From Limnochordia bacterium (GTDB lineage Bacteria > Bacillota > Limnochordia > DTU080), in assembly GCA_050951545.1 (NCBI GenBank), contig JBMNJG010000006.1, positions 148,576-212,575 on the forward strand: DNA of 64,000 bases, read 5' to 3'. The translations under genes were made by a program, and so were the position numbers. A model generated the notes under the pieces. It ran no database searches. It worked only from the letters and a program-made list of their open reading frames with translations, and was not told the origin of the DNA. Shown one piece after another: positions 5,258 to 57,907 of the stretch; within the stretch, counting starts at the first letter, position 1; each line of letters opens with the position of its first letter.

Positions 5258-8200
5258 ATCCCGATTCTAGGTGTGTGGGGGAGCCTATGCACTGAGCTGG
5301 AACAATGGTCCGGTGTCGGGTCAATCCCCGCGTGTGCGGGGGAGCCCGCAGACGCCAAGATTCGGCTCGGCAGTTATGGGGTCAATCCCCGCGTGTGCGG
5401 GGGAGCCCGAAATGGCAATGCAGCTGCAGAAGCAGGACGAGGTCAATCCCCGCGTGTGCGGGGGAGCCGAGTGAGACAAGAACAAAAGGAGGCGCCACAA
5501 CGGTCAATCCCCGCGTGTGCGGGGGAGCCCTCCAGGCACAGAGTATGGATCATCACACCCGCGGTCAATCCCCGCGTGTGCGGGGGAGCCGTAGGGTTCG
5601 GGGGCGTGGGGAGGTATGGGACGGGTCAATCCCCGCGTGTGCGGGGGAGCCACCGAGTTCAGGACTGAACAGGAAACAGACAGAGGTCAATCCCCGCGTG
5701 TGCGGGGGAGCCCGCTGGTGATCAGGATGGGTTTGCCGATCACGCGGTCAATCCCCGCGTGTGCGGGGGAGCCGCACCCACCAACAGAGTCGAAGCCGTC
5801 CCATAGGGTCAATCCCCGCGTGTGCGGGGGAGCCACGTCACCGGTATAGGCGTCTATTACTCGCATCGGTCAATCCCCGCGTGTGCGGGGGAGCCATCCA
5901 GCGAGACGCAAAGAAGTATGGCCCGAGGGGTCAATCCCCGCGTGTGCGGGGGAGCCTACTTTGAGCCAACCCCAGTCATTCTAGATATGGGTCAATCCCC
6001 GCGTGTGCGGGGGAGCCTTCTCCCAGACGATAGCGTGCTTGCTTCGCCAGGGTCAATCCCCGCGTGTGCGGGGGAGCCGAGATCGACAAGCAGTACGCCA
6101 TCCTGCAAGAGGGTCAATCCCCGCGTGTGCGGGGGAGCCTCGGCGACTACGACCCGGAAGTAGGAGCCTGGAGGTCAATCCCCGCGTGTGCGGGGGAGCC
6201 ACGGTCGAGCCGTCAATCGTCACGGCGAAATAGGGTCAATCCCCGCGTGTGCGGGGGAGCCACATGCCCTTTTGGTACCTTGCGGCCATGGTGCGGTCAA
6301 TCCCCGCGTGTGCGGGGGAGCCTTCGGGTTTATTCGAAACAACTCGGTGCGTAAGGGTCAATCCCCGCGTGTGCGGGGGAGCCGTATATCACCGAGCCTA
6401 CGGTTCGAGCATAAGCGGTCAATCCCCGCGTGTGCGGGGGAGCCTTGGGTATGGGCAGTTGTTTCGTGGCCTTCAAGGGTCAATCCCCGCGTGTGCGGGG
6501 GAGCCTTACGCTGGCGTTGGCCAACAGCAGAACAGAGAGGTCAATCCCCGCGTGTGCGGGGGAGCCAGGCCTGGAACCTCCCAAGGGTAATGCGGCTGAG
6601 GTCAATCCCCGCGTGTGCGGGGGAGCCGCTCGTACTTCCGCCCCTCACAGCGGAAACACCGGTCAATCCCCGCGTGTGCGGGGGAGCCGGCTGGTATAGC
6701 GACGGGTCATACCGATCCTGGGGTCAATCCCCGCGTGTGCGGGGGAGCCCCAAGCAGGGCATCACCATACACCCCAGCGTGAGGCCAATCCCCGCGTGTG
6801 CGGGGGAGCCGGTCCTCACACTAACGCCGACCAGCATAACGGAGGTCAATCCCCGCGTGTGCGGGGGAGCCGTAACGATCGACGGCTCGACCGTGCGTCT
6901 CACAGGTCAATCCCCGCGTGTGCGGGGGAGCCATCTAAGGGATTTGGGGTGCGCGCTCGCTCACGGGTCAATCCCCGCGTGTGCGGGGGAGCCGGCCTTT
7001 TAGCTGGTGTTTTGTTCCCGCATATGGGTCAATCCCCGCGTGTGCGGGGGGAGCCGCTAGCAGGCACGGCGCGTTCATTGTCCGGACGACGTAGGCGGTC
7101 AATCCCCGCGTGTGCGGGGGAGCCAGCCCCTTGGCGCGCAGATAGGCAAACAACTCCGGTCAATCCCCGCGTGTGCGGGGGAGCCGTGGAGTGATGGCAA
7201 GGCACGAGACAAGTAGCGGGTCAATCCCCGCGTGTGCGGGGGAGCCTGCCGCGAGTACGAGGCCGACGACTGTGAGGCAGGTCAATCCCCGCGTGTGCGG
7301 GGGAGCCCGGGAAGCGATACTCGGAAATAGCGGTCCCACCGGTCAATCCCCGCGTGTGCGGGGGAGCCCACACCCAGTACGTAGGCCCGCACAAAGTACA
7401 GGGTCAATCCCCGCGTGTGCGGGGGAGCCCACGCTTTACGATCGACACGGAGACAGACAGATGGTCAATCCCCGCGTGTGCGGGGGAGCCTATAGTCGGT
7501 GCCCTGGTCGGTAGCACCTGTGAGGTCAATCCCCGCGTGTGCGGGGGAGCCTGTGATGGAAGCTGATAGAGTGCAAGTGCCCAGGGTCAATCCCCGCGTG
7601 TGCGGGGGAGCCATGCTTCGTTCTGCGAGTGCTTCGCCTATCACAGGTCAATCCCCGCGTGTGCGGGGGAGCCCCCCAGATCACGCGCTCTGCAGGTACA
7701 GCAGCCGGTCAATCCCCGCGTGTGCGGGGGAGCCGCAGGACAAGCCTAGCCAAGGGGATCGGCATCGGGTCAATCCCCGCGTGTGCGGGGGAGCCATACT
7801 CCAAATGCCCCACCAGCGTGTCGAAGGCGGTCAATCCCCGCGTGTGCGGGGGAGCCCCATACCACGCGAGCCCCATCCAACCCAACGCGGGTCAATCCCC
7901 GCGTGTGCGGGGGAGCCTACAGAACGAAGAGATAGAGTGCTGGCGCAACGGGTCAATCCCCGCGTGTGCGGGGGAGCCCAACGCGGGTGAGCTCATCAGC
8001 CCGAGCTGTGAGGTCAATCCCCGCGTGTGCGGGGGAGCCGCTTCCATCCACGTTGTACCAGCACCTGTTTGAGGTCAATCCCCGCGTGTGCGGGGGAGCC
8101 AAAAAAATCTGTCTCTCATCGCACTGGAAATATGGTCAATCCCCGCGTGTGCGGGGGAGCCCCTTCTGACCAAGCGCAGAACCTTGTATGCGCAGGTCAA

Positions 8201-10534
8201 TCCCCGCGTGTGCGGGGGAGCCCGGCTACAACGTGACGTCGATGCCTACGCTTGGGGTCAATCCCCGCGTGTGCGGGGGAGCCTCCAGGTCACCGGCGGT
8301 GATGGCGAGGGGCCCAGGTCAATCCCCGCGTGTGCGGGGGAGCCTCCGCCATGCTCACCCCTCCAAATCGGGTATGAGGTCAATCCCCGCGTGTGCGGGG
8401 GAGCCACACGCATCATCTGGCTACGGCGGGTCTGCCGGGGTCAATCCCCGCGTGTGCGGGGGAGCCTTGTTTGAACTGAGCAGTTAGGTCTTTTATCTCG
8501 GTCAATCCCCGCGTGTGCGGGGGAGCCACATCTCCGGGACTGTTACGGGCGGTTGATATGGGTCAATCCCCGCGTGTGCGGGGGAGCCCCTACGGGAGGG
8601 GGCGGACGACGATGCTGAGCCGGTCAATCCCCGCGTGTGCGGGGGAGCCATGGTGAGCTTCACGGGCGAACTGTGGGCAGGAGGTCAATCCCCGCGTGTG
8701 CGGGGGAGCCCAGCGGGGACGGCAACGCGTTCAGCATACGAGGGGTCAATCCCCGCGTGTGCGGGGGAGCCATGCCCAGTCGTCAACCAGCAGTTTTGCG
8801 GTGAGGTCAATCCCCGCGTGTGCGGGGGAGCCACCGCGTGGTGCCCCGGCGCATCCCCCATGTAGGGTCAATCCCCGCGTGTGCGGGGGAGCCCTACCCG
8901 ATCCCGGAGCTGTGGGGCCTAGTGGGGGTCAATCCCCGCGTGTGCGGGGGAGCCGTTGATTTCCTGCGAGGCAACCTTGCCCATGGAGGTCAATCCCCGC
9001 GTGTGCGGGGGAGCCAGCTTCAATACGAGCCATGCTCTGGGTGCGGGCGGTCAATCCCCGCGTGTGCGGGGGAGCCGCACCGTGACGCTATCCGAGAGCT
9101 TGGGACGCGGGTCAATCCCCGCGTGTGCGGGGGAGCCTACGCCTGCCCGCGCTCGATGATCCTCCGTAGGGGTCAATCCCCGCGTGTGCGGGGGAGCCAT
9201 ATACTTTTCACGCCAGGTGACAACGAACACCGGTCAATCCCCGCGTGTGCGGGGGAGCCACAACCGATCACGGTTACCTCGCGCATCCTGTTGGTCAATC
9301 CCCGCGTGTGCGGGGGAGCCCCGCCCAAGAACTTGCGAAGCACCTACATCAGCGGTCAATCCCCGCGTGTGCGGGGGAGCCGGGAACGCAAACGGCGTCT
9401 TACGCTGAAACTCCGGTCAATCCCCGCGTGTGCGGGGGAGCCGCCCCCTTTTAGTCTCGCCATAGCCTCGCGCAGGGTCAATCCCCGCGTGTGCGGGGGA
9501 GCCAAGAATCCATGAGAAAAGAAGCGCGGGAGCGAAGGTCAATCCCCGCGTGTGCGGGGGAGCCAACTAGCGGCATACTACGAGGAAGCGGACCAGGGGT
9601 CAATCCCCGCGTGTGCGGGGGAGCCGGAGATCATCCCGTACGCATGGCCTGGGGGATAGGTCAATCCCCGCGTGTGCGGGGGAGCCAGTACGCCTCTTCG
9701 AGTTCCAGTTTCGGCATCGGGTCAATCCCCGCGTGTGCGGGGGAGCCGATCACCCCGATACACGGCACTATCCGTGATAGGGTCAATCCCCGCGTGTGCG
9801 GGGGAGCCTGGGGATAGGTCTGGATCATGTGGGCCGGCACAGGTCAATCCCCGCGTGTGCGGGGGAGCCGATTGTCGGAACGAAAGATGTCGTGCTGAGC
9901 AGGGTCAATCCCCGCGTGTGCGGGGGAGCCCAAAATTAGTAGTATTCGCTGTACACAAGGAAGGGTCAATCCCCGCGTGTGCGGGGGAGCCTTCCGGTCC
10001 AGGCCCGACAGCCGCCGTGCAGGAGGTCAATCCCCGCGTGTGCGGGGGAGCCACGATCCCGATCGCGGGGTACTCCGTCAGCATGGGTCAATCCCCGCGT
10101 GTGCGGGGGAGCCTTCCAGGCATCCTCACGATGCCACCTCCTTGCGGGTCAATCCCCGCGTGTGCGGGGGAGCCGCCGCAGCCGCGTTGTAGCTGCGCCC
10201 CAATAACGGTCAATCCCCGCGTGTGCGGGGGAGCCCAGAATCAGGAACAGCTGTCATGGCCACTGTCGGTCAATCCCCGCGTGTGCGGGGGAGCCTACCA
10301 CCAGAGGTATACGCAGCCATGGTGACGAAGGTCAATCCCCGCGTGTGCGGGGGAGCCGTCCTCGATTTACCATGCTCAGCGCCGATGCGGGTCAATCCCC
10401 GCGTGTGCGGGGGAGCCTATCGTGACGCCTGCTGCCAGAGTCGTGCAGGGTCAATCCCCGCGTGTGCGGGGGAGCCGTACACGCGCATAGTGAGGCACAG
10501 CCGTGGGGTCAATCCCCGCGTGTGCGGGGGAGCC
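5258..10534 (-). CRISPR. Type I-E-like CRISPR array, 87 repeats / 86 spacers
   Basis: 28-bp repeat GGTCAATCCCCGCGTGTGCGGGGGAGCC (+ strand), 61-bp period, intact copies from 5319 to 10507-10534, degenerate copy at 5258-5285. The reverse complement GGCTCCCCCGCACACGCGGGGATTGACC parallels the E. coli I-E repeat (hairpin followed by ATAAACC-like handle), so transcription is on the - strand. Variant repeats at 6783 (GGCC...) and 7027 (extra G). Confidence 0.99.
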
Positions 10535-10620: not shown

Positions 10621-10920
10621 GCCCATTTCCTTCCTCGGTGTGCCTATCGTGATCTGGTGGTAGGCTTGCCAACCCTTCAATCAGCTCTGCGGGACTGAAG
10701 AGCCTGCAACCTCGCTTCGCTGTCTGGATGACCTCTGACTGAAGCGAGGCGGAATGACACCATCCTCCCTGTCCCGCCTGTCACCTCCATCTCAGGGCAG
10801 CTCGAGCCCTGTCTGCTGCATCATCTCAATAGCCTCTTCATCTGGGTTCCTGTGCCACGCCAGGTAGCCAGAGCGACCACGCGCAAGACACTGGTAATCT
10901 GCTCACGTTCGCTCAGGGTG

Positions 10921-11257
10921 GTGGTAAGAGTGCAGCGATGCGATCTTAGCAGAGCCCTTTTTGCGGACCGGAACCGTTTTCAGGGGCTCATTTCTCCCCC
11001 TAGGAGCACACTCTGCCGCCTCGATAGCCCTTCTGGGGCTACCAGACAACACATAACCGAACCGTGTCGATGGTCCTTTCCCACTCAGCCGATGTCCGAG
11101 CGCAAGTCCGCCCAGGTTTCGTGAGGAACCCAGCGGCTGGTAAGCGTCTGGAGTTCGGTCTCCTCTATTACCTGCACGACATTGCCATTGAGTATAATGG
11201 GTCGGAACACTACCTCGTCGCAGAGCAGCATTCAGCTGAGCAGGTCCACAAGCAGCA
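10921..11257 (+). pseudogene. Degenerate, internally deleted copy of the repeat + HTH-nuclease module at 54171-56297
   Basis: 10921-11105 aligns by eye with 54900-55088; 11108-11257 aligns with 55899-56047 (RPGFVRNPAAGKRLEFGLLYYLHDIAIEYNGSEHY vs RPGFMRNPATGKRLEVDLFYYLHNTAMEFNGAQHY). Confidence 0.85.
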
Positions 11258-11275
11258 CAGGTCCACAGGCGGCAG

Positions 11276-53549: not shown

Positions 53550-54170
53550 TCACTTCGTCATTCCTTCAGCCAAGACAGCAGCGACTATGGGCCTCAGCTT
53601 ATCGATGCCAGCCTTGGCACTTTCGAAGCCGTAGGCCGCCGCGTCAAGGCCGTTGTCGATTTCCTCCCAGACGCGATCCGTAAGTGGATGAAATGGCGCT
53701 GCCCTGGCGTGCGGCACCGTATCAAGGATTACCGAGGACCACTTGCCGAATGCCTGCCAAGCGTATAGAGACGGCTTAGACGCTATGCTCCTGCGCCCAG
53801 GTACGCCCGAAAACGTCGTATAGTGGCTCAGCTGTACGTCATCGCGGTGTAGGAATTTCATAAACTGCCAGGACAAGTCGGGGCGTTTGGAGGTGCTGGG
53901 TATGAACCAGCCGCCCACGAAAGCTTCGGTCGCTCGTCCCGCGGGTCCGAGGGGCGGCATCAGAACCCCCCACCGTACATTAGTATCCCTCATGTGACCA
54001 CTGGTAGCGTACCAGGCCCCCGCCCAGTGAGCAGCCACCTTACCTGCAGGAAGACGGCCATGGTTGGTCACATCACCTACTTCGGCGGAGCTGCGTGGGA
54101 AAACGTGTGCTACGTTACGTAGATCGAAACTCCACTGTAGACCCGACACTACCTGCTCCTTGTCTACCCT
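53550..54170 (-). pseudogene. 5'-truncated sugar solute-binding protein gene
   Basis: Only the C-terminal half is present (GLQWSFDL, AGKVAA, WGVLMPPLGPAG, SWQFMKFL); no signal peptide; upstream sequence is the 405-bp repeat. Confidence 0.8.
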
Positions 54171-55088
54171 AAGGGCACACTTTCTCGCCCTGGCGGCCCT
54201 TCTGGAGCTTCCGGACGGTACATAACCCGACGGTGGTGATACCTTTTTCCCACTCAGTCGATGGGGTCAGCTCCCCAGTGCGCGATCACGGCGGGCTCAC
54301 TCGGATCCCTCTGCGGACCGACCCTTCGGTGTTGCCCCGGTCGGTGTGTTTCGAAAAGGGTGGACAGATGCAATGGACGCGCTCGCGAAACAAGCCCTGC
54401 AGTCAGACACCAGCCGGATTGGTATGTGAGGCCGGGCTAAGGATGTGGCCGCGATGGCAAGAGAGCCGCCCCATTTACCCCCGGAGCCAGTGTGCGTGGC
54501 AAAAGTGCAGCGATGCGGCCTTCGCGAAGCCCTTTCTGCTCATTTTGACCGCCCGAAGGGCTCATTTCCCCCCAAAAGAGCACGCTTTCCCGTCCTGGTT
54601 CCGCTTCTGGAGCTTCCGGACGGTACATAACCCGACGGTGGTGATACCTTTTTCCCACTCAGTCGATGGGGTCAGCTCCCCAGTGCGCGATCACGGCGGG
54701 CTCGCTCGGGTCCCTCTGCGGACCCACCCTTCGGTGTTGCCCCGGTCGGTGCATTCGAACAGAATGGACGGACACCATGCACACGCTCGCGAGACTGGCT
54801 CGGTAGTCGGACAGATGCACCCAATTTGGACATTGTCGGGGCCAGGATCCGACGGCGATGGCAGAAGGGTCGCCCCATTAGCCCCCGGGGCCAATGTACG
54901 TGGTAAAAGTGCAGCGATGCGGCCTTCGCGAAGCCCTTTTTGCTCATTTTGACCGCCCGAAGGGCTCATTTCCCCCCAAAAGAGCACGCTTTTCCGTCCT
55001 GATTCCGCTTCTGGAGCTGCTGGGCAGTACATAACCCGACGCCATTGATCGCCTTTTGCCACTCAAACGATGATCCGAGGGCGAAATG
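54171..55088. repeat. ~405-bp tandem repeat, about 2.25 units
   Basis: Anchor CTTCTGGAGC at 54199, 54604 and 55008 (periods 405 and 404); near-identical blocks separated by a more diverged ~140-bp segment. Confidence 0.95.
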
Positions 55089-55203
55089 CAATCGACTCCC
55101 GGTGGCCACCGGGTCTTAGCTGGCAATGCGCGCGCAGTCAGCGAAGAACTATTGTCTGTGGAAGGATTCTGGAGCCGCACATAGAATTCAGCATTGAATC
55201 AAT

Positions 55204-55217
55204 CGAACACATGATCG
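55204..55217 (+). promoter_or_regulatory. Putative LexA (SOS) box
   Basis: CGAACACATGATCG, one mismatch to the Firmicute consensus CGAACRNRYGTTCG; lies between a TAGAAT -10-like hexamer (55182) and the SD. Confidence 0.4.
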
Positions 55218-55235
55218 TTGTGTGAGGTGAGGCCC

Positions 55236-56297
55236 TTGTACTCTCTCTATGTAGATGAGGTGAACGTGCCGCTCTCACTGCTACTGACTCGCGAGCTAAA
55301 AGCCAGCGAGAAGATCGTTTGGATGGCCTTAACGATGGATGATCAGCTGGAGGAGAGTTTCCTTTTCTCGCCCAGCCGCCTGGGGCGGCGCACGGGTATG
55401 TCCCGGCCTACCGTTCGCAGGGCGACAGCCAAGTTAACCACCGAGGGCTGGTTTGCTCCACCAGCTAGGCGGGTGCCTAGCCAGACCCCAGCACAGAAGC
55501 CATCCCCGGACAGGGTCTCCGTGCCTGTCGAGTTAGTCATGGCTACTGAAATCCATGCACAGGCCAAGTTGGTTTATGCCCTACTGCTGTCCAAACCTAC
55601 GGACCCACCTCGCAAAAGGCAGTTCACATACGCTGAGTTAGCCGGCCGAATGAGTCTGAGCCCCCAAACCATCAAACACGCGGCTCGTCAGTTGGCCAAG
55701 CATGGTTGGCTGGAGATGGAGCAGGCGCACAAGCGGGCACCGATTCGCTTCACTCTCCACAACCCGGTTGATAAGCGAAATGTAAAAGAAATACTAGACG
55801 TGCAGGATGAGCTCCACCGCGCTACGCACCTCGGAGAGGCTCTCATGCAGGCTATCTTCTTGGCGCTTGTCGATTGCCTTGACTTCGACGACGGAATGCG
55901 CCCAGGTTTCATGAGGAACCCAGCAACTGGCAAGCGTCTGGAGGTCGATCTCTTCTATTACTTGCACAATACGGCCATGGAGTTCAATGGGGCGCAACAC
56001 TACCGCGTCACTGAGCGGAATTCGGCTGAGCAGGTCCATAAGCAGCAATGCCGTGACCAGACCAAACAGCAGATCTGCGCTAAGAAGAAGATCAAGCTGA
56101 TCGTGATTCAGGCTCACGAGCTGTCCTGCAAGATCATCGAGCGCAAGATTCACAGGCGGCTGCCATTCCGGCGCGGTCAGGACTTCAACCGGAAGCTCAT
56201 CAACTATCTCGAGTGTAGATGCGGTGAGTACCAGCAAAGAATAGATGAACGTGGCTGGGGAACCGCCAGCGAATCAGAGGAAACGCAAGAGGAGTAA
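55236..56297 (+). CDS. Tandem winged-HTH protein with a C-terminal Vsr/DUF559-like PD-(D/E)XK endonuclease domain
   Basis: Two internal repeats (VP..L.....L....K.V...L / L....G.S..T...A...L...GW), then RPGFMRNPATGKRLEVDLF......MEFNGAQHY...RD..K..IC....IKLIVI. TTG start behind GAGGTGAGG. Confidence 0.78.
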   Translation: MYSLYVDEVNVPLSLLLTRELKASEKIVWMALTMDDQLEESFLFSPSRLGRRTGMSRPTVRRATAKLTTEGWFAPPARRVPSQTPAQKPSPDRVSVPVELVMATEIHAQAKLVYALLLSKPTDPPRKRQFTYAELAGRMSLSPQTIKHAARQLAKHGWLEMEQAHKRAPIRFTLHNPVDKRNVKEILDVQDELHRATHLGEALMQAIFLALVDCLDFDDGMRPGFMRNPATGKRLEVDLFYYLHNTAMEFNGAQHYRVTERNSAEQVHKQQCRDQTKQQICAKKKIKLIVIQAHELSCKIIERKIHRRLPFRRGQDFNRKLINYLECRCGEYQQRIDERGWGTASESEETQEE

Positions 56298-56302
56298 TCA
56301 CC

Positions 56303-56551
56303 TTGGGTCACCTTTATCCGAGGCTGGAGGCCGCTGACTACCCCATTGGCAGCGGATGCGTAGAAAGCGCCTGTAAGCAGGTTGTTGTTAGGCGCCACAA
56401 GCAATCTGGAATGCGTTGGAGCCAACTTAGGGCACAGCAGATGCCAAACGTTGCAGCATACTCCCACGGTGAACAGTGGGACGATTTCTGGGAGAGGCGG
56501 GAGGCAGCATGATTAGGAACGGGTGTTCGCCGCGATTTCGCGTGTGCACCC
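56303..56551 (+). mobile_element. ISKra4/ISLre2-like transposase 3' remnant with a possible right end
   Basis: YPIGSGCVESACKQVVVRRHKQSGMRWS is a typical C-terminal motif; ends WDDFWERREAA*, followed by ...GTGTGCACCC. Confidence 0.75.
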
Positions 56552-56623
56552 GTCGGTAATGAGCAACTCGACCGGACAACAGGTAATGTGGTAAACTATT
56601 AGAACAACGGATGACAGGGGGAT

Positions 56624-57907
56624 ATGGCTATGAAAAAGCGTGCTTATGTACTATGGCTAGGCGTGTGGCTGCTTTCCCTTCTTGCTGTACCTGCAACAGG
56701 CGCAACACCCATTGTCATGTGGTTCTCATCGCAGCCTGTTCCGGTCACCGAATGGGCGGAGACCTTCCAGGACACGTTCAATGAACGCAATCCCGACATC
56801 CGGCTCTCTGTAGAAATGCATCCCAGGGTCAGTGCCCTCCGTGAGAAGCTGATTGTAGCGGTGGCAGGCGGCGTAGCGCCTGACATCTTCTACGAGAGCA
56901 GCAACGTGATGAGCCAATGGATCCTCTCAGAACTGGCCTTGCCCATCGACCGCTACCTGAACGCCATGCCTGACCGATCCGACCTCATTCCTGATGCGGT
57001 CAGGGCCTTGCGCTACGGTGGAAAGACATGGGCTCTACCATTCAGCGTCTGGCCCATAGGCGATCTGTATAACATAGACATGTTTGAGGGTAGCGGCCTG
57101 GCGAGACCTGCGTCTTGGAAGGAACTCGAAATGTCTGCCCGCAGGCTCCTTCAGGTTGGTGAGGGCGGTCAGATCACTTTGTTTGGCTACCGGAAACCCC
57201 ACAACGAGCTGGCGAACTTCCTTGATTTGCAGCTGGCGATGGAGCAGTTGGGGAGTACCGCTATTGCTACGGAAGGCACCAAATCCAACCTTCGCACGGA
57301 TGTGGCCCGTCAAGCACTTACCTACATGCGAGATATCGTCCAAGCGGGAATGCCTAACTCTGCTGGAGGAAGTGACCTGGCTTCTATTCTGGGCGGTAAG
57401 GTCGCTGTCCAACACATGTATCCTGGTTATGAGTTGATCGACCTGGCCGACCAAATCTCTGCGGCGGGTCTGAACCTGGAGTTCCATCGGTACGTCGGTC
57501 CAGAAACGAAGAAGGACCTCGTTCATCACAACGCTGGCACATTCTTCATAGTCTCCTCCACAAGAAACCCCGATGAAGCCTGGCGAGTGCTGCAAGCGTT
57601 CCTTGAGCGCAGGACATTGAAAGGCTACCTTATGGCGCATGGATCGTGTTTGTCCGTCCGCTTATCTCAGCGTACCGATCCTGACCTCTTGGCTCGTCCG
57701 TATTGCTCGAGCCTCATAGCTGCGCTCGTTTCGCCCATCACTACCTACGGCCCCAACAACCCCTACTACCCCCATTTCCGTCAGCCAGCAGGTGCTTTCC
57801 TGCGTCAGGCGGTCAACGGAGAGCTAGCCATCGAGACCGCCTTAGAACAGGCTGCTGATGTGATGGACGTGATCGTAGCCGATAAAATCGGGTCTGCCGG
57901 AAAATAA
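56624..57907 (+). CDS. Sugar ABC transporter substrate-binding protein
   Basis: Signal peptide, VAGGVAPDIF, YGGKTWALP, YNIDMF, EAWRVLQAF. Confidence 0.88.
   Translation: MAMKKRAYVLWLGVWLLSLLAVPATGATPIVMWFSSQPVPVTEWAETFQDTFNERNPDIRLSVEMHPRVSALREKLIVAVAGGVAPDIFYESSNVMSQWILSELALPIDRYLNAMPDRSDLIPDAVRALRYGGKTWALPFSVWPIGDLYNIDMFEGSGLARPASWKELEMSARRLLQVGEGGQITLFGYRKPHNELANFLDLQLAMEQLGSTAIATEGTKSNLRTDVARQALTYMRDIVQAGMPNSAGGSDLASILGGKVAVQHMYPGYELIDLADQISAAGLNLEFHRYVGPETKKDLVHHNAGTFFIVSSTRNPDEAWRVLQAFLERRTLKGYLMAHGSCLSVRLSQRTDPDLLARPYCSSLIAALVSPITTYGPNNPYYPHFRQPAGAFLRQAVNGELAIETALEQAADVMDVIVADKIGSAGK

Follow-up and report, generated by a model that had tools for sequence, protein, structure and literature searches.

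A probable transposase-less ISKra4-type element carries a winged-helix/nuclease gene and long tandem repeats in a Limnochordia genome

Here we describe a transposable element of 1.9-4.1 kb that has multiplied in the genome of a Limnochordia bacterium (GenBank assembly GCA_050951545.1; 3.64 Mb in 16 contigs). One 5'-truncated copy lies at positions 54155-56551 of a stretch of 64,000 nucleotides, called the window throughout (contig JBMNJG010000006.1, positions 148,576 to 212,575; G000:C6:148576-212575). The copy joins an array of long non-coding tandem repeats to a gene for a protein with two winged helix-turn-helix (wHTH) domains and a nuclease-like domain, followed by the relic of a DDE transposase gene of the ISKra4 insertion sequence (IS) family and a terminal inverted repeat. 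The explanation that we prefer, and consider fairly probable as a whole, is that of an ISKra4 chassis without a transposase of its own that carries the nuclease gene and the array as cargo. The chassis is of a known kind, while the cargo and its recurrent gene-array link appear to be undescribed. No published description of such a gene-array element was found, the passenger genes of published ISKra4 elements standing outside that comparison. The features of the window that concern the element are the following.

53550..54149, minus strand: truncated solute-binding-protein gene, C-terminal 199 aa only, adjoining the broken left edge of the element
54155..55072, plus strand: tandem array of non-coding units (44-nt unit tail, 54199-54602, 54603-55006, 65-nt unit head)
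55073..55235, plus strand: unique spacer with a ribosome-binding word; two mosaic haplotype blocks among copies
55236..56297, plus strand: gene of the 353-aa protein, with two winged-helix domains (~8-75 and ~93-175) and a predicted Vsr/EDxHD-like nuclease domain (~196-311)
56303..56512, plus strand: remnant C-terminus of a DDE transposase of the ISKra4 family (NF033572 positions 368-410 of 422, E 4.9e-16)
56525..56551, plus strand: right terminal inverted repeat of type A, ending ...GTGTGCACCC; the repetition stops at about 56551
56568..56597, plus strand: promoter-like -35 (TCGACC) and -10 (TAAACT) for the solute-binding-protein gene that starts at 56624
10914..11258, plus strand: decayed, internally deleted related copy (unit end plus nuclease-domain fragment), directly after a CRISPR array

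An initial annotation of the window had placed tandem repeats shortly upstream of a 353-aa gene, and both are real. Tandem Repeats Finder (TRF) reports a repeat at 54199-55041 (period 404, 2.1 copies, 86% matches, score 1262). A repeat search widens its limits to 54155-55072, or about 2.3 units of 404 bp (pairs 91% and 86% alike), which end about 160 nt before the TTG start codon at 55236. The open reading frame (ORF) runs from 55218 or 55236 to 56297. The TTG start is preceded by the Shine-Dalgarno-like word GAGGTGAGG and yields 353 aa, the same length as the database cluster P0001. The window copy has no true left end. The inverted repeat, about 60 nt next to it and 50 nt of the first unit are missing, and the genomic repetition begins at about 54155, inside a unit, against the truncated solute-binding-protein gene (Pfam SBP_bac_8 profile positions 178-274 of 279). 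Two genomes of the same genus, G001 and G002, show no synteny between this left flank and the right one. On the other side the transposase relic nearly abuts the stop codon of the gene through a deletion; other copies have 200-370 nt more there. Over 30 positions aligned without gaps, the right repeat of the window copy agrees with the left repeat of the element at 18.

Eight copies retain both ends and measure 1,881-4,071 bp. Intact copies open with GGGGCCACGCAAAAAACTGCGGTAATCTCC, which has 10 matches in the genome; the right-end words have 16. The terminal inverted repeats of these copies are asymmetric (GGGGCCACGCAAAAAACTGCGG... on the left and ...CGCGATTTCACGTGTGCACCC on the right), and the left opening is followed by unit position 311. 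The outermost letters are GGGG... and ...CACCC, and left and right agree as inverted repeats at 18 and 19 of the first 30 positions. Two related types of right end were recognised. Type A (...GTTCGCCGCGATTTCACGTGTGCACCC) is preceded by the transposase relic, and type B (...GTTGACCGCCATTTCTCGTGTGCAC(T)CCC) lies about 170 nt after the stop codon. Target duplications of the eight full copies are perfect 9-bp repeats in five and agree at 8 of 9 positions in one; two copies have none. In addition, a 3,027-bp copy on contig C11 is absent from the syntenic intergenic region of G001 and G002, where its flanks are about 245 bp apart in both genomes, compared with 3,304 bp here. The comparison of filled and empty loci that had been proposed with the initial annotation speaks for mobility. 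Two composite right sides were also observed (G000:C7:456447-458150 and C16:834-2332), in which a type-B end is followed by about 15 nt, a left-end-like word, a transposase relic and an end of type A. On contig 7 it is the outer end that fits the 9-bp duplication, so this composite moved as a single unit.

The insertions are oriented towards promoters. A -35-like hexamer stands 15-16 nt past the element end in six of 13 right flanks, and the copies share one orientation. A -35/-10 pair that scores at least 9 of 12 is present in four of the 13, against 0.9% of 3,000 random positions. Promoters of tRNA genes are among the targets, along with a T-box-like leader and, in the window, the solute-binding-protein gene that starts at 56624; copies are found directly ahead of tRNA, tRNA-synthetase and transporter promoters. 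The window promoter scores 8 of 12 with a spacer of 18, and its -35 box lies 16 nt past the element end, a distance that fits the 13-17 bp rule for ISKra4-group elements in excerpts of PMC3942029.

According to these excerpts (Guerillot et al. 2014), prokaryotic Mutator-like (p-MULT) elements have terminal repeats of 18-39 bp that end in C, make 8-9-bp duplications and transpose through circles. TnGBS, ISLre2 and the ISKra4 group insert in one orientation 13-17 bp upstream of sigma-A promoters, the orientation being set by the dissymmetry of the two terminal repeats, and four ISKra4 elements hold extra genes of unknown function. The element described here has the same features. Its repeats are of this size and end in C, its duplications fall within the 8-9-bp range, and its insertion is oriented and upstream of promoters, about 15-16 bp before the -35 box, at a share of sites above the 20% taken as the mark of the group. 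A transposase C-terminus stands beside the right end, and the element carries an extra gene, as some members of the group do in the excerpted text (PMC3942029).

The initial annotation considered the module to be free of any DDE transposase, which proved wrong: 56303-56512 is the ISKra4-family relic (NF033572, E 4.9e-16). The same relic (43 aa in the window; about the last 45 codons) lies beside the right end of 10 copies. It covers NF033572 positions 368-410 of 422, and this is all that is left of the transposase. The element thus differs from the ISKra4 group in keeping only ~45 transposase codons and in having a 404-bp-unit array and a wHTH-nuclease gene in the place of the transposase. A full-length ISKra4-type transposase in an unrelated metagenome-assembled genome (MAG) is 63% identical to the relic; its element ends ...GGGATGCACCC, and TTGACT follows 17 nt later. 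On account of the ends, the 9-bp duplications, the oriented promoter insertion and the relic, we file the chassis with the ISKra4 group. Very probably, then, the chassis is a member of the ISKra4 group (p-MULT 4, prokaryotic Mutator-like DDE elements) whose transposase has been lost. The initial annotation had recognised no named family and had regarded a known IS family with described ends, or a plasmid Rep family, as what would tell against a new element. The mobility chassis does belong to the described ISKra4 elements, but the wHTH-nuclease protein maps to no IS or Rep family.

The element and its relatives are abundant in this genome, where the protein has 34 tblastn matches. Family 1, to which the window copy belongs, comprises 13 full-length copies at 97-100% aa identity, two split copies and three fragments. 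Family 2 has four copies at 54-55%, families 3a and 3b have two and six copies at 47-49%, and one further split copy is 46-56% identical. The 404-nt unit has 99 matches that group into 26 arrays or fragments. All 15 family-1 genes carry 1-5 whole units directly upstream, and the build of the array is constant: unit positions 311-404, then the 1-5 whole units, then positions 1-65. The initial reading of a mobile multi-copy module in which repeats and gene travel together is borne out by these 15 of 15 loci, whose 15 arrays have units 70-99.5% alike. Short-read contigs break at the element, but the 15 arrays and the read depth speak for the array. In one DNA run, which may be that of the source sample, read depth is about 20 in the flanks, about 299 in the gene and 300-2500 in the repeats. 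Words of the element are present in DNA runs from landfills, bioreactors and digesters, sampled in at least 13 studies. The gene-less copies and mini-derivatives are irregular internal deletions, as expected for elements mobilised in trans. The 546-aa open frame of subfamily 3a was considered as a fusion and rejected; its N-terminal extension looks like read-through. A transposase-like gene fragment with an N-terminal helix-turn-helix (HTH) adjoins a family-3a copy on contig C9 (locus L020, 354-968). Judged by reading alone, it may be similar to IS21 IstA.

The protein belongs to a large unnamed family. A word-indexed search of 5.8 billion protein sequences returned only eight clusters; a full HMMER scan of representatives gave 1,555 proteins at E <= 1e-3, of which 147 clusters also pass E <= 1e-30. 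The relatives are mostly about 330 aa long and 30-40% identical, and the nearest language-model clusters are unnamed Bacillota proteins. Pfam confirms the two wHTH regions that the initial annotation had read in the 353-aa protein (HTH_36, 4.5e-9; at 51-79 and 111-168 when residues are counted in the 359-aa form). It gives no C-terminal match for the window protein at E <= 1. Among 83 aligned relatives, 70 match HTH_36 and 11 match DUF2726 (best 4.2e-5). The conserved columns of this alignment are D238, Y241, E249, G252, Q254, H255, Q270, R273, D274 and K277, with D238, E249, H255 and D274 each at least 90% conserved. The C-terminal motif singled out earlier is present and corresponds to eight of them (D238, E249, G252, Q254, H255, R273, D274, K277).

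In the AlphaFold model (pLDDT 92.5, pTM 0.86) the three best structure matches of the C-terminal part, residues 196-311, are the homing endonuclease I-Bth0305I (3r3p, Z 8.0, 93 of 98 residues), Vsr (1cw0, Z 7.9) and NGO0050 (3hrl, Z 7.6), all in the borderline range that the tool calls a 'possibly common arrangement'. These three structures stand in one Vsr/DUF559/DUF2726 clade in the available part of PMC3424549 (Steczkiewicz et al. 2012). PHROG families of homing or intron-encoded nucleases match residues 232-307 (E 1.4e-11, 1.4e-9 and 6e-6). The likeness to Vsr and DUF559 nucleases suggested earlier is therefore supported, and extends to DUF2726, by the structure and PHROG matches and by the DUF2726 matches of relatives. 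The spacing of D238, E249, H255 and D274 resembles that of the EDxHD residues D196/N208/H213/D222 given for I-Bth0305I in excerpts of PMC3239194, so that these four may form the catalytic site. The predicted fold and the phage homing profiles are shared with I-Bth0305I and the Vsr-DUF559-DUF2726 clade, and the spacing of the conserved acidic and histidine residues looks similar, whereas the protein has two winged helices instead of NUMOD motifs and its gene lies outside any intron or intein. Indeed, the gene is free-standing between the repeat array and the IS end, and no Rfam intron matches. Phage relatives share the nuclease domain only and occur in four Staphylococcus phage records.

The N-terminal repeats were said to resemble the HTHs of phage and plasmid replication initiators, and the model bears out a likeness to iteron-binding initiators. 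Residues 3-177 match the Pi initiator (2nra) with Z 8.3 over 166 residues (root-mean-square deviation 4.1), and RepE (1rep) with a TM score of 0.43. PHROG replication-initiation families match the same half (E 3e-7). Gene and array could accordingly be a replication module, an initiator with an iteron-like origin that amplifies an excised circle. This would recall TnGBS, which replicates its circular form with a plasmid-type replicase in the excerpts of PMC3942029; TnGBS is a host element from the same Mutator-like superfamily, whose members move through circles. The tandem winged-helix layout and the direct repeats that adjoin the gene are as in the Pi/RepE initiators. However, there is no match to the Rep_3 profile in the window protein or its relatives, none of 72,556 plasmid records contains a relative, and the conserved nuclease domain that is added here has no role in theta initiation. 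The 404-nt units are 20 times longer than iterons of 17-22 bp, and no short common repeat was found in them. Nor does the element have its own transposase with which to make the circle. We regard a replication module as rather improbable.

The protein is under purifying selection across the copies. Twelve gap-free gene copies are 98.2% identical in DNA, with 0.049 differences per silent site (pS) and 0.0084 per replacement site (pN), a pN/pS of 0.17, and the gene is intact in 13 of the 15 family-1 copies. The identity of the 13-copy alignment rises at about 55206 and falls at about 56246. It is 98.6% in the ORF, 86.2% in the spacer 55073-55200 (substitutions only) and about 75% after the stop codon. 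Two strongly divergent haplotype blocks make up the spacer and are combined independently of each other in the copies, and beside a nearly uniform ORF these blocks are a sign of recombination or conversion among copies. Either conversion homogenises only the conserved ORF, or the ORF is younger than its surroundings.

The second possibility would make the ORF a young homing-endonuclease gene, swept by conversion through older IS-derived repeats, with the arrays belonging to the invaded element. The identity step at both borders of the ORF fits such a sweep (86% in the spacer, 98.6% in the ORF, ~75% after the stop), as does the roughly threefold lower divergence of silent sites (pS 0.049) relative to the adjacent unique spacer with its two mosaic blocks. 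The homing-endonuclease-type fold and profile matches of the catalytic domain and the inversion of the gene relative to the ends in subfamily 2 point the same way. Yet this genome lacks any allele from which the ORF alone is precisely missing, the copies without the gene being irregular deletions, and the link of gene and array recurs in other genomes. In addition, identity dips inside the ORF at a disordered linker and at the tail, which fits selection plus conversion among conserved cores. A homing sweep has, in our opinion, a poor claim.

The units of the array do not code for protein and give no hint of a structured RNA. In any of the six frames at most one of 52 whole units is free of stop codons. 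Their mean pairwise identity is 84% (range 70-99.5%), best partners are usually about 90% alike and often in the same array, and conservation is spread out with firmer blocks at positions 61-120 and 261-360. A search for promoters or terminators in the array gave nothing above shuffles. The units had looked by eye like multiplied element ends, and this idea was dropped after local alignment (z <= 2.1 against shuffles).

The initial annotation had also raised the possibility of a transcribed partner RNA, that is, of repeats that yield a partner or guide RNA for the nuclease. The array does lie upstream on the strand of the gene, one short RNA-library contig falls on the repeats (54292-54388), and nuclease-plus-RNA cargo is known in other IS families (TnpB). 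However, the units have no Rfam match and their minimum free energy is no better than that of shuffles on either strand (z +0.81 and +0.48). RNAalifold finds covariation at 3-4 of about 70 predicted pairs in the 52 units. The protein itself has wHTH domains of the DNA-binding type and no known RNA-binding part. A partner RNA is very improbable, and the repeats would act as DNA, not as protein or RNA. Other RNA-library contigs, from three runs, lie over the gene at 55356-56309 and may include DNA carry-over. A junction 55644->56514 in two RNA libraries, which skips 869 nt of the gene, was considered as RNA processing and rejected, since a genomic copy with an internal deletion and a different flank has the same junction (G000:C14:231-359).

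Arrays of unrelated sequence accompany other members of the protein family. Families 2 and 3b have arrays of their own, with units of about 270 nt and about 93 nt, which sit between the 3' end of the gene and the element end. Past its array, family 2 has an end of the type GGG(A/G)CCACGCAAAA..., and its gene is inverted relative to the ends. Beyond this genome, the protein family was found in 13 of the 40 relatives sampled and, among 300 other genomes of the phylum, in 15; it was not found in the two same-genus genomes G001 and G002. Direct repeats of at least 100 nt lie within 1.5 kb of the gene at 12 of 38 loci of other genomes, and in three of the 12 they stand on both sides of it. Among 300 random windows of our own genome, 14 contain such repeats, an imperfect control since the genomes are not the same. 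The co-occurrence of repeat and gene that the initial annotation had proposed to score is thus complete in the genome itself (15 of 15) and enriched, but not general, elsewhere.

These recurrences bear on whether the gene is an ordinary passenger, for example a host-useful regulator or a defence nuclease, beside a functionless satellite grown by slippage. The excerpts of PMC3942029 do record passenger genes without known function in ISKra4 elements, and the variable number of units (1-5) and a neighbouring pair that is 99.5% alike are what unequal exchange would give. The search for defence families with PADLOC, however, gives only weak matches at the level of the HTH, and a benefit to the host can hardly account for fifteen copies under selection. 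Nor does a chance satellite agree with arrays of unrelated sequence beside the family at 12 of 38 loci, as compared with 14 of 300 control windows. We give the passenger explanation little credit.

We return to the transposase-less chassis with a nuclease and array as cargo. A cognate DDE transposase would have moved the copies in trans, by the circular-intermediate pathway of the superfamily, from outside the present assembly. The protein may be a sequence-specific DNA endonuclease whose cognate binding sites lie in the adjacent repeat array. Nuclease and sites would then form a selfish maintenance or homing-type module that rides in the transposon and acts on DNA, not through RNA. This part of the explanation is tentative, and we put it somewhat below an even chance, with less confidence than the chassis. 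It still ranks first among the readings of the cargo, ahead of a mobility enzyme and a replication module (ranked equal), of a homing sweep and a passenger (also equal) and of a partner RNA.

Several results weigh against this explanation. The cognate full-length transposase was found neither in the genome itself (93.9% complete) nor in five relatives, and neither a relic-peptide search of the genome collection nor a search of metagenome contigs with two end words recovered it. Since no matching full-length transposase was found, the copies look non-autonomous; because the genome is 93.9% complete, the absence of a helper is unproven. There is no ISKra4 match at all in the relatives in which the protein family numbers 13 and 11 copies, and in one of them eight loci are flanked by housekeeping genes only. 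Ends of the family-1 type were not seen at loci from other genomes, and 26 of the 38 loci have no repeat within 1.5 kb. As for the nuclease, Foldseek finds no match at E <= 0.001, the Z scores of 7.6-8.0 are borderline, and the mapping of catalytic residues on I-Bth0305I rests on spacing, not on a computed alignment. The unit has no significant likeness to the left end, the spacer or the 3' region (z <= 2.1), and no short motif common to the arrays of 12 subfamilies or genomes was found. Finally, purifying selection on a mere passenger in 15 copies is unexpected, which suggests that the protein matters for propagation.

Alternatively, the wHTH-nuclease could itself be the mobility enzyme, a transposase or homing nuclease of a new type with the repeats and ends as its sites, and the relic a historical accident. 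The nuclease gene is the only intact gene of the element (pN/pS 0.17), no cognate DDE gene was found, and four subfamilies at 47-55% identity have each expanded here with related ends. The family is also multi-copy in relatives without an ISKra4 match, alone among housekeeping genes. However, 9-bp duplications, repeats ending in C, oriented insertion and the relic are together the published ISKra4 signature, and the copies in the relatives are old (65-83% nt identity), which gives no sign of recent movement. To our knowledge, Vsr/PD-(D/E)XK nucleases hydrolyse DNA and are not known for strand transfer. We estimate the chance of such an enzyme to be small. A bolder form of the cargo proposal, which we think unlikely, is that array and nuclease are a self-propagating module: the nuclease would bind and cut its own repeat family, spread the ORF by repair-driven conversion and so keep or drive the transposase-less chassis to 15-30 copies per genome without a DDE enzyme.

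In the preferred explanation, a transposase-less chassis mobilised in trans, the element is comparable to other non-autonomous IS derivatives. These include Miniature Inverted-repeat Transposable Elements (MITEs) and mobile insertion cassettes, some of which carry cargo. IS-family ends, duplications, the lack of a transposase, the high copy number and internally deleted minis are common to all of them. Unlike them, the element has a cargo ORF under purifying selection and long arrays of variable length, and no helper was found.

The nuclease cargo of IS200/IS605 and IS607 elements, TnpB/IscB, offers a second comparison. There too an IS carries a nuclease that is distinct from its transposase and may help the element to persist, whereas the nuclease proposed here would be protein-guided, is of unrelated fold and goes with a different transposition chemistry. 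Although its transposase is lost, the element has reached some 15 nearly identical copies, with 34 family matches over 3.6 Mb, and keeps a selected nuclease gene, which poses the questions of what moves the element and what the nuclease does for it. In several genomes, members of the large unnamed protein family lie beside long tandem repeats whose sequences are unrelated. Should the nuclease act on its own repeats, it would represent a protein-guided analogue of the IS605/IS607 (TnpB/IscB) cargo. If the module propagates itself, it would be a protein-guided counterpart of TnpB/IscB or a new class of mobility nuclease. Otherwise the copies are a clean example of how promoter-targeted ISKra4-type derivatives reshape a genome.

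A different IS of 1,695 bp is also detected by the transposase family profile, which finds in this genome the ten relics plus three copies and one fragment of this IS. It has a 541-aa ISKra4/ISLre2-like ORF, which scores 81 bits against a cut-off of 205, and inverted repeats of its own, with ends unlike those of the element. The copies lie at G000:C2:219040-220734 and on C16 and C9 (loci L051-L053), in addition to the fragment. They make 9-bp duplications, and a TTGAC-like box stands 13-16 nt past the right end, which makes this IS a second promoter-targeting element in the genome.

The initial annotation had reported that the linkage of repeat and nuclease recurs at 10921-11257 of the window. 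The recurrence is real, but it is a decayed fragment. Positions 10914-11094 resemble the end of a unit at 72-74%, and 11070-11258 match protein residues 215-277 (63 residues) at 57% aa and 84% nt identity. Unrelated long tandem or direct repeats, noticed among the control windows, occur elsewhere in the genome as well, for example 311-nt units at 98.7% identity (G000:C6:82375-82995). The CRISPR array next to the decayed copy (5319-10534) has 86 repeats of the type GGTCAATCCCCGCGTGTGCGGGGGAGCC, a period of 61 nt and 85 spacers of 30-42 nt. None of the 85 spacers matches the element; one matches 23 of 24 positions elsewhere in the genome, at G000:C11:71947-71970.

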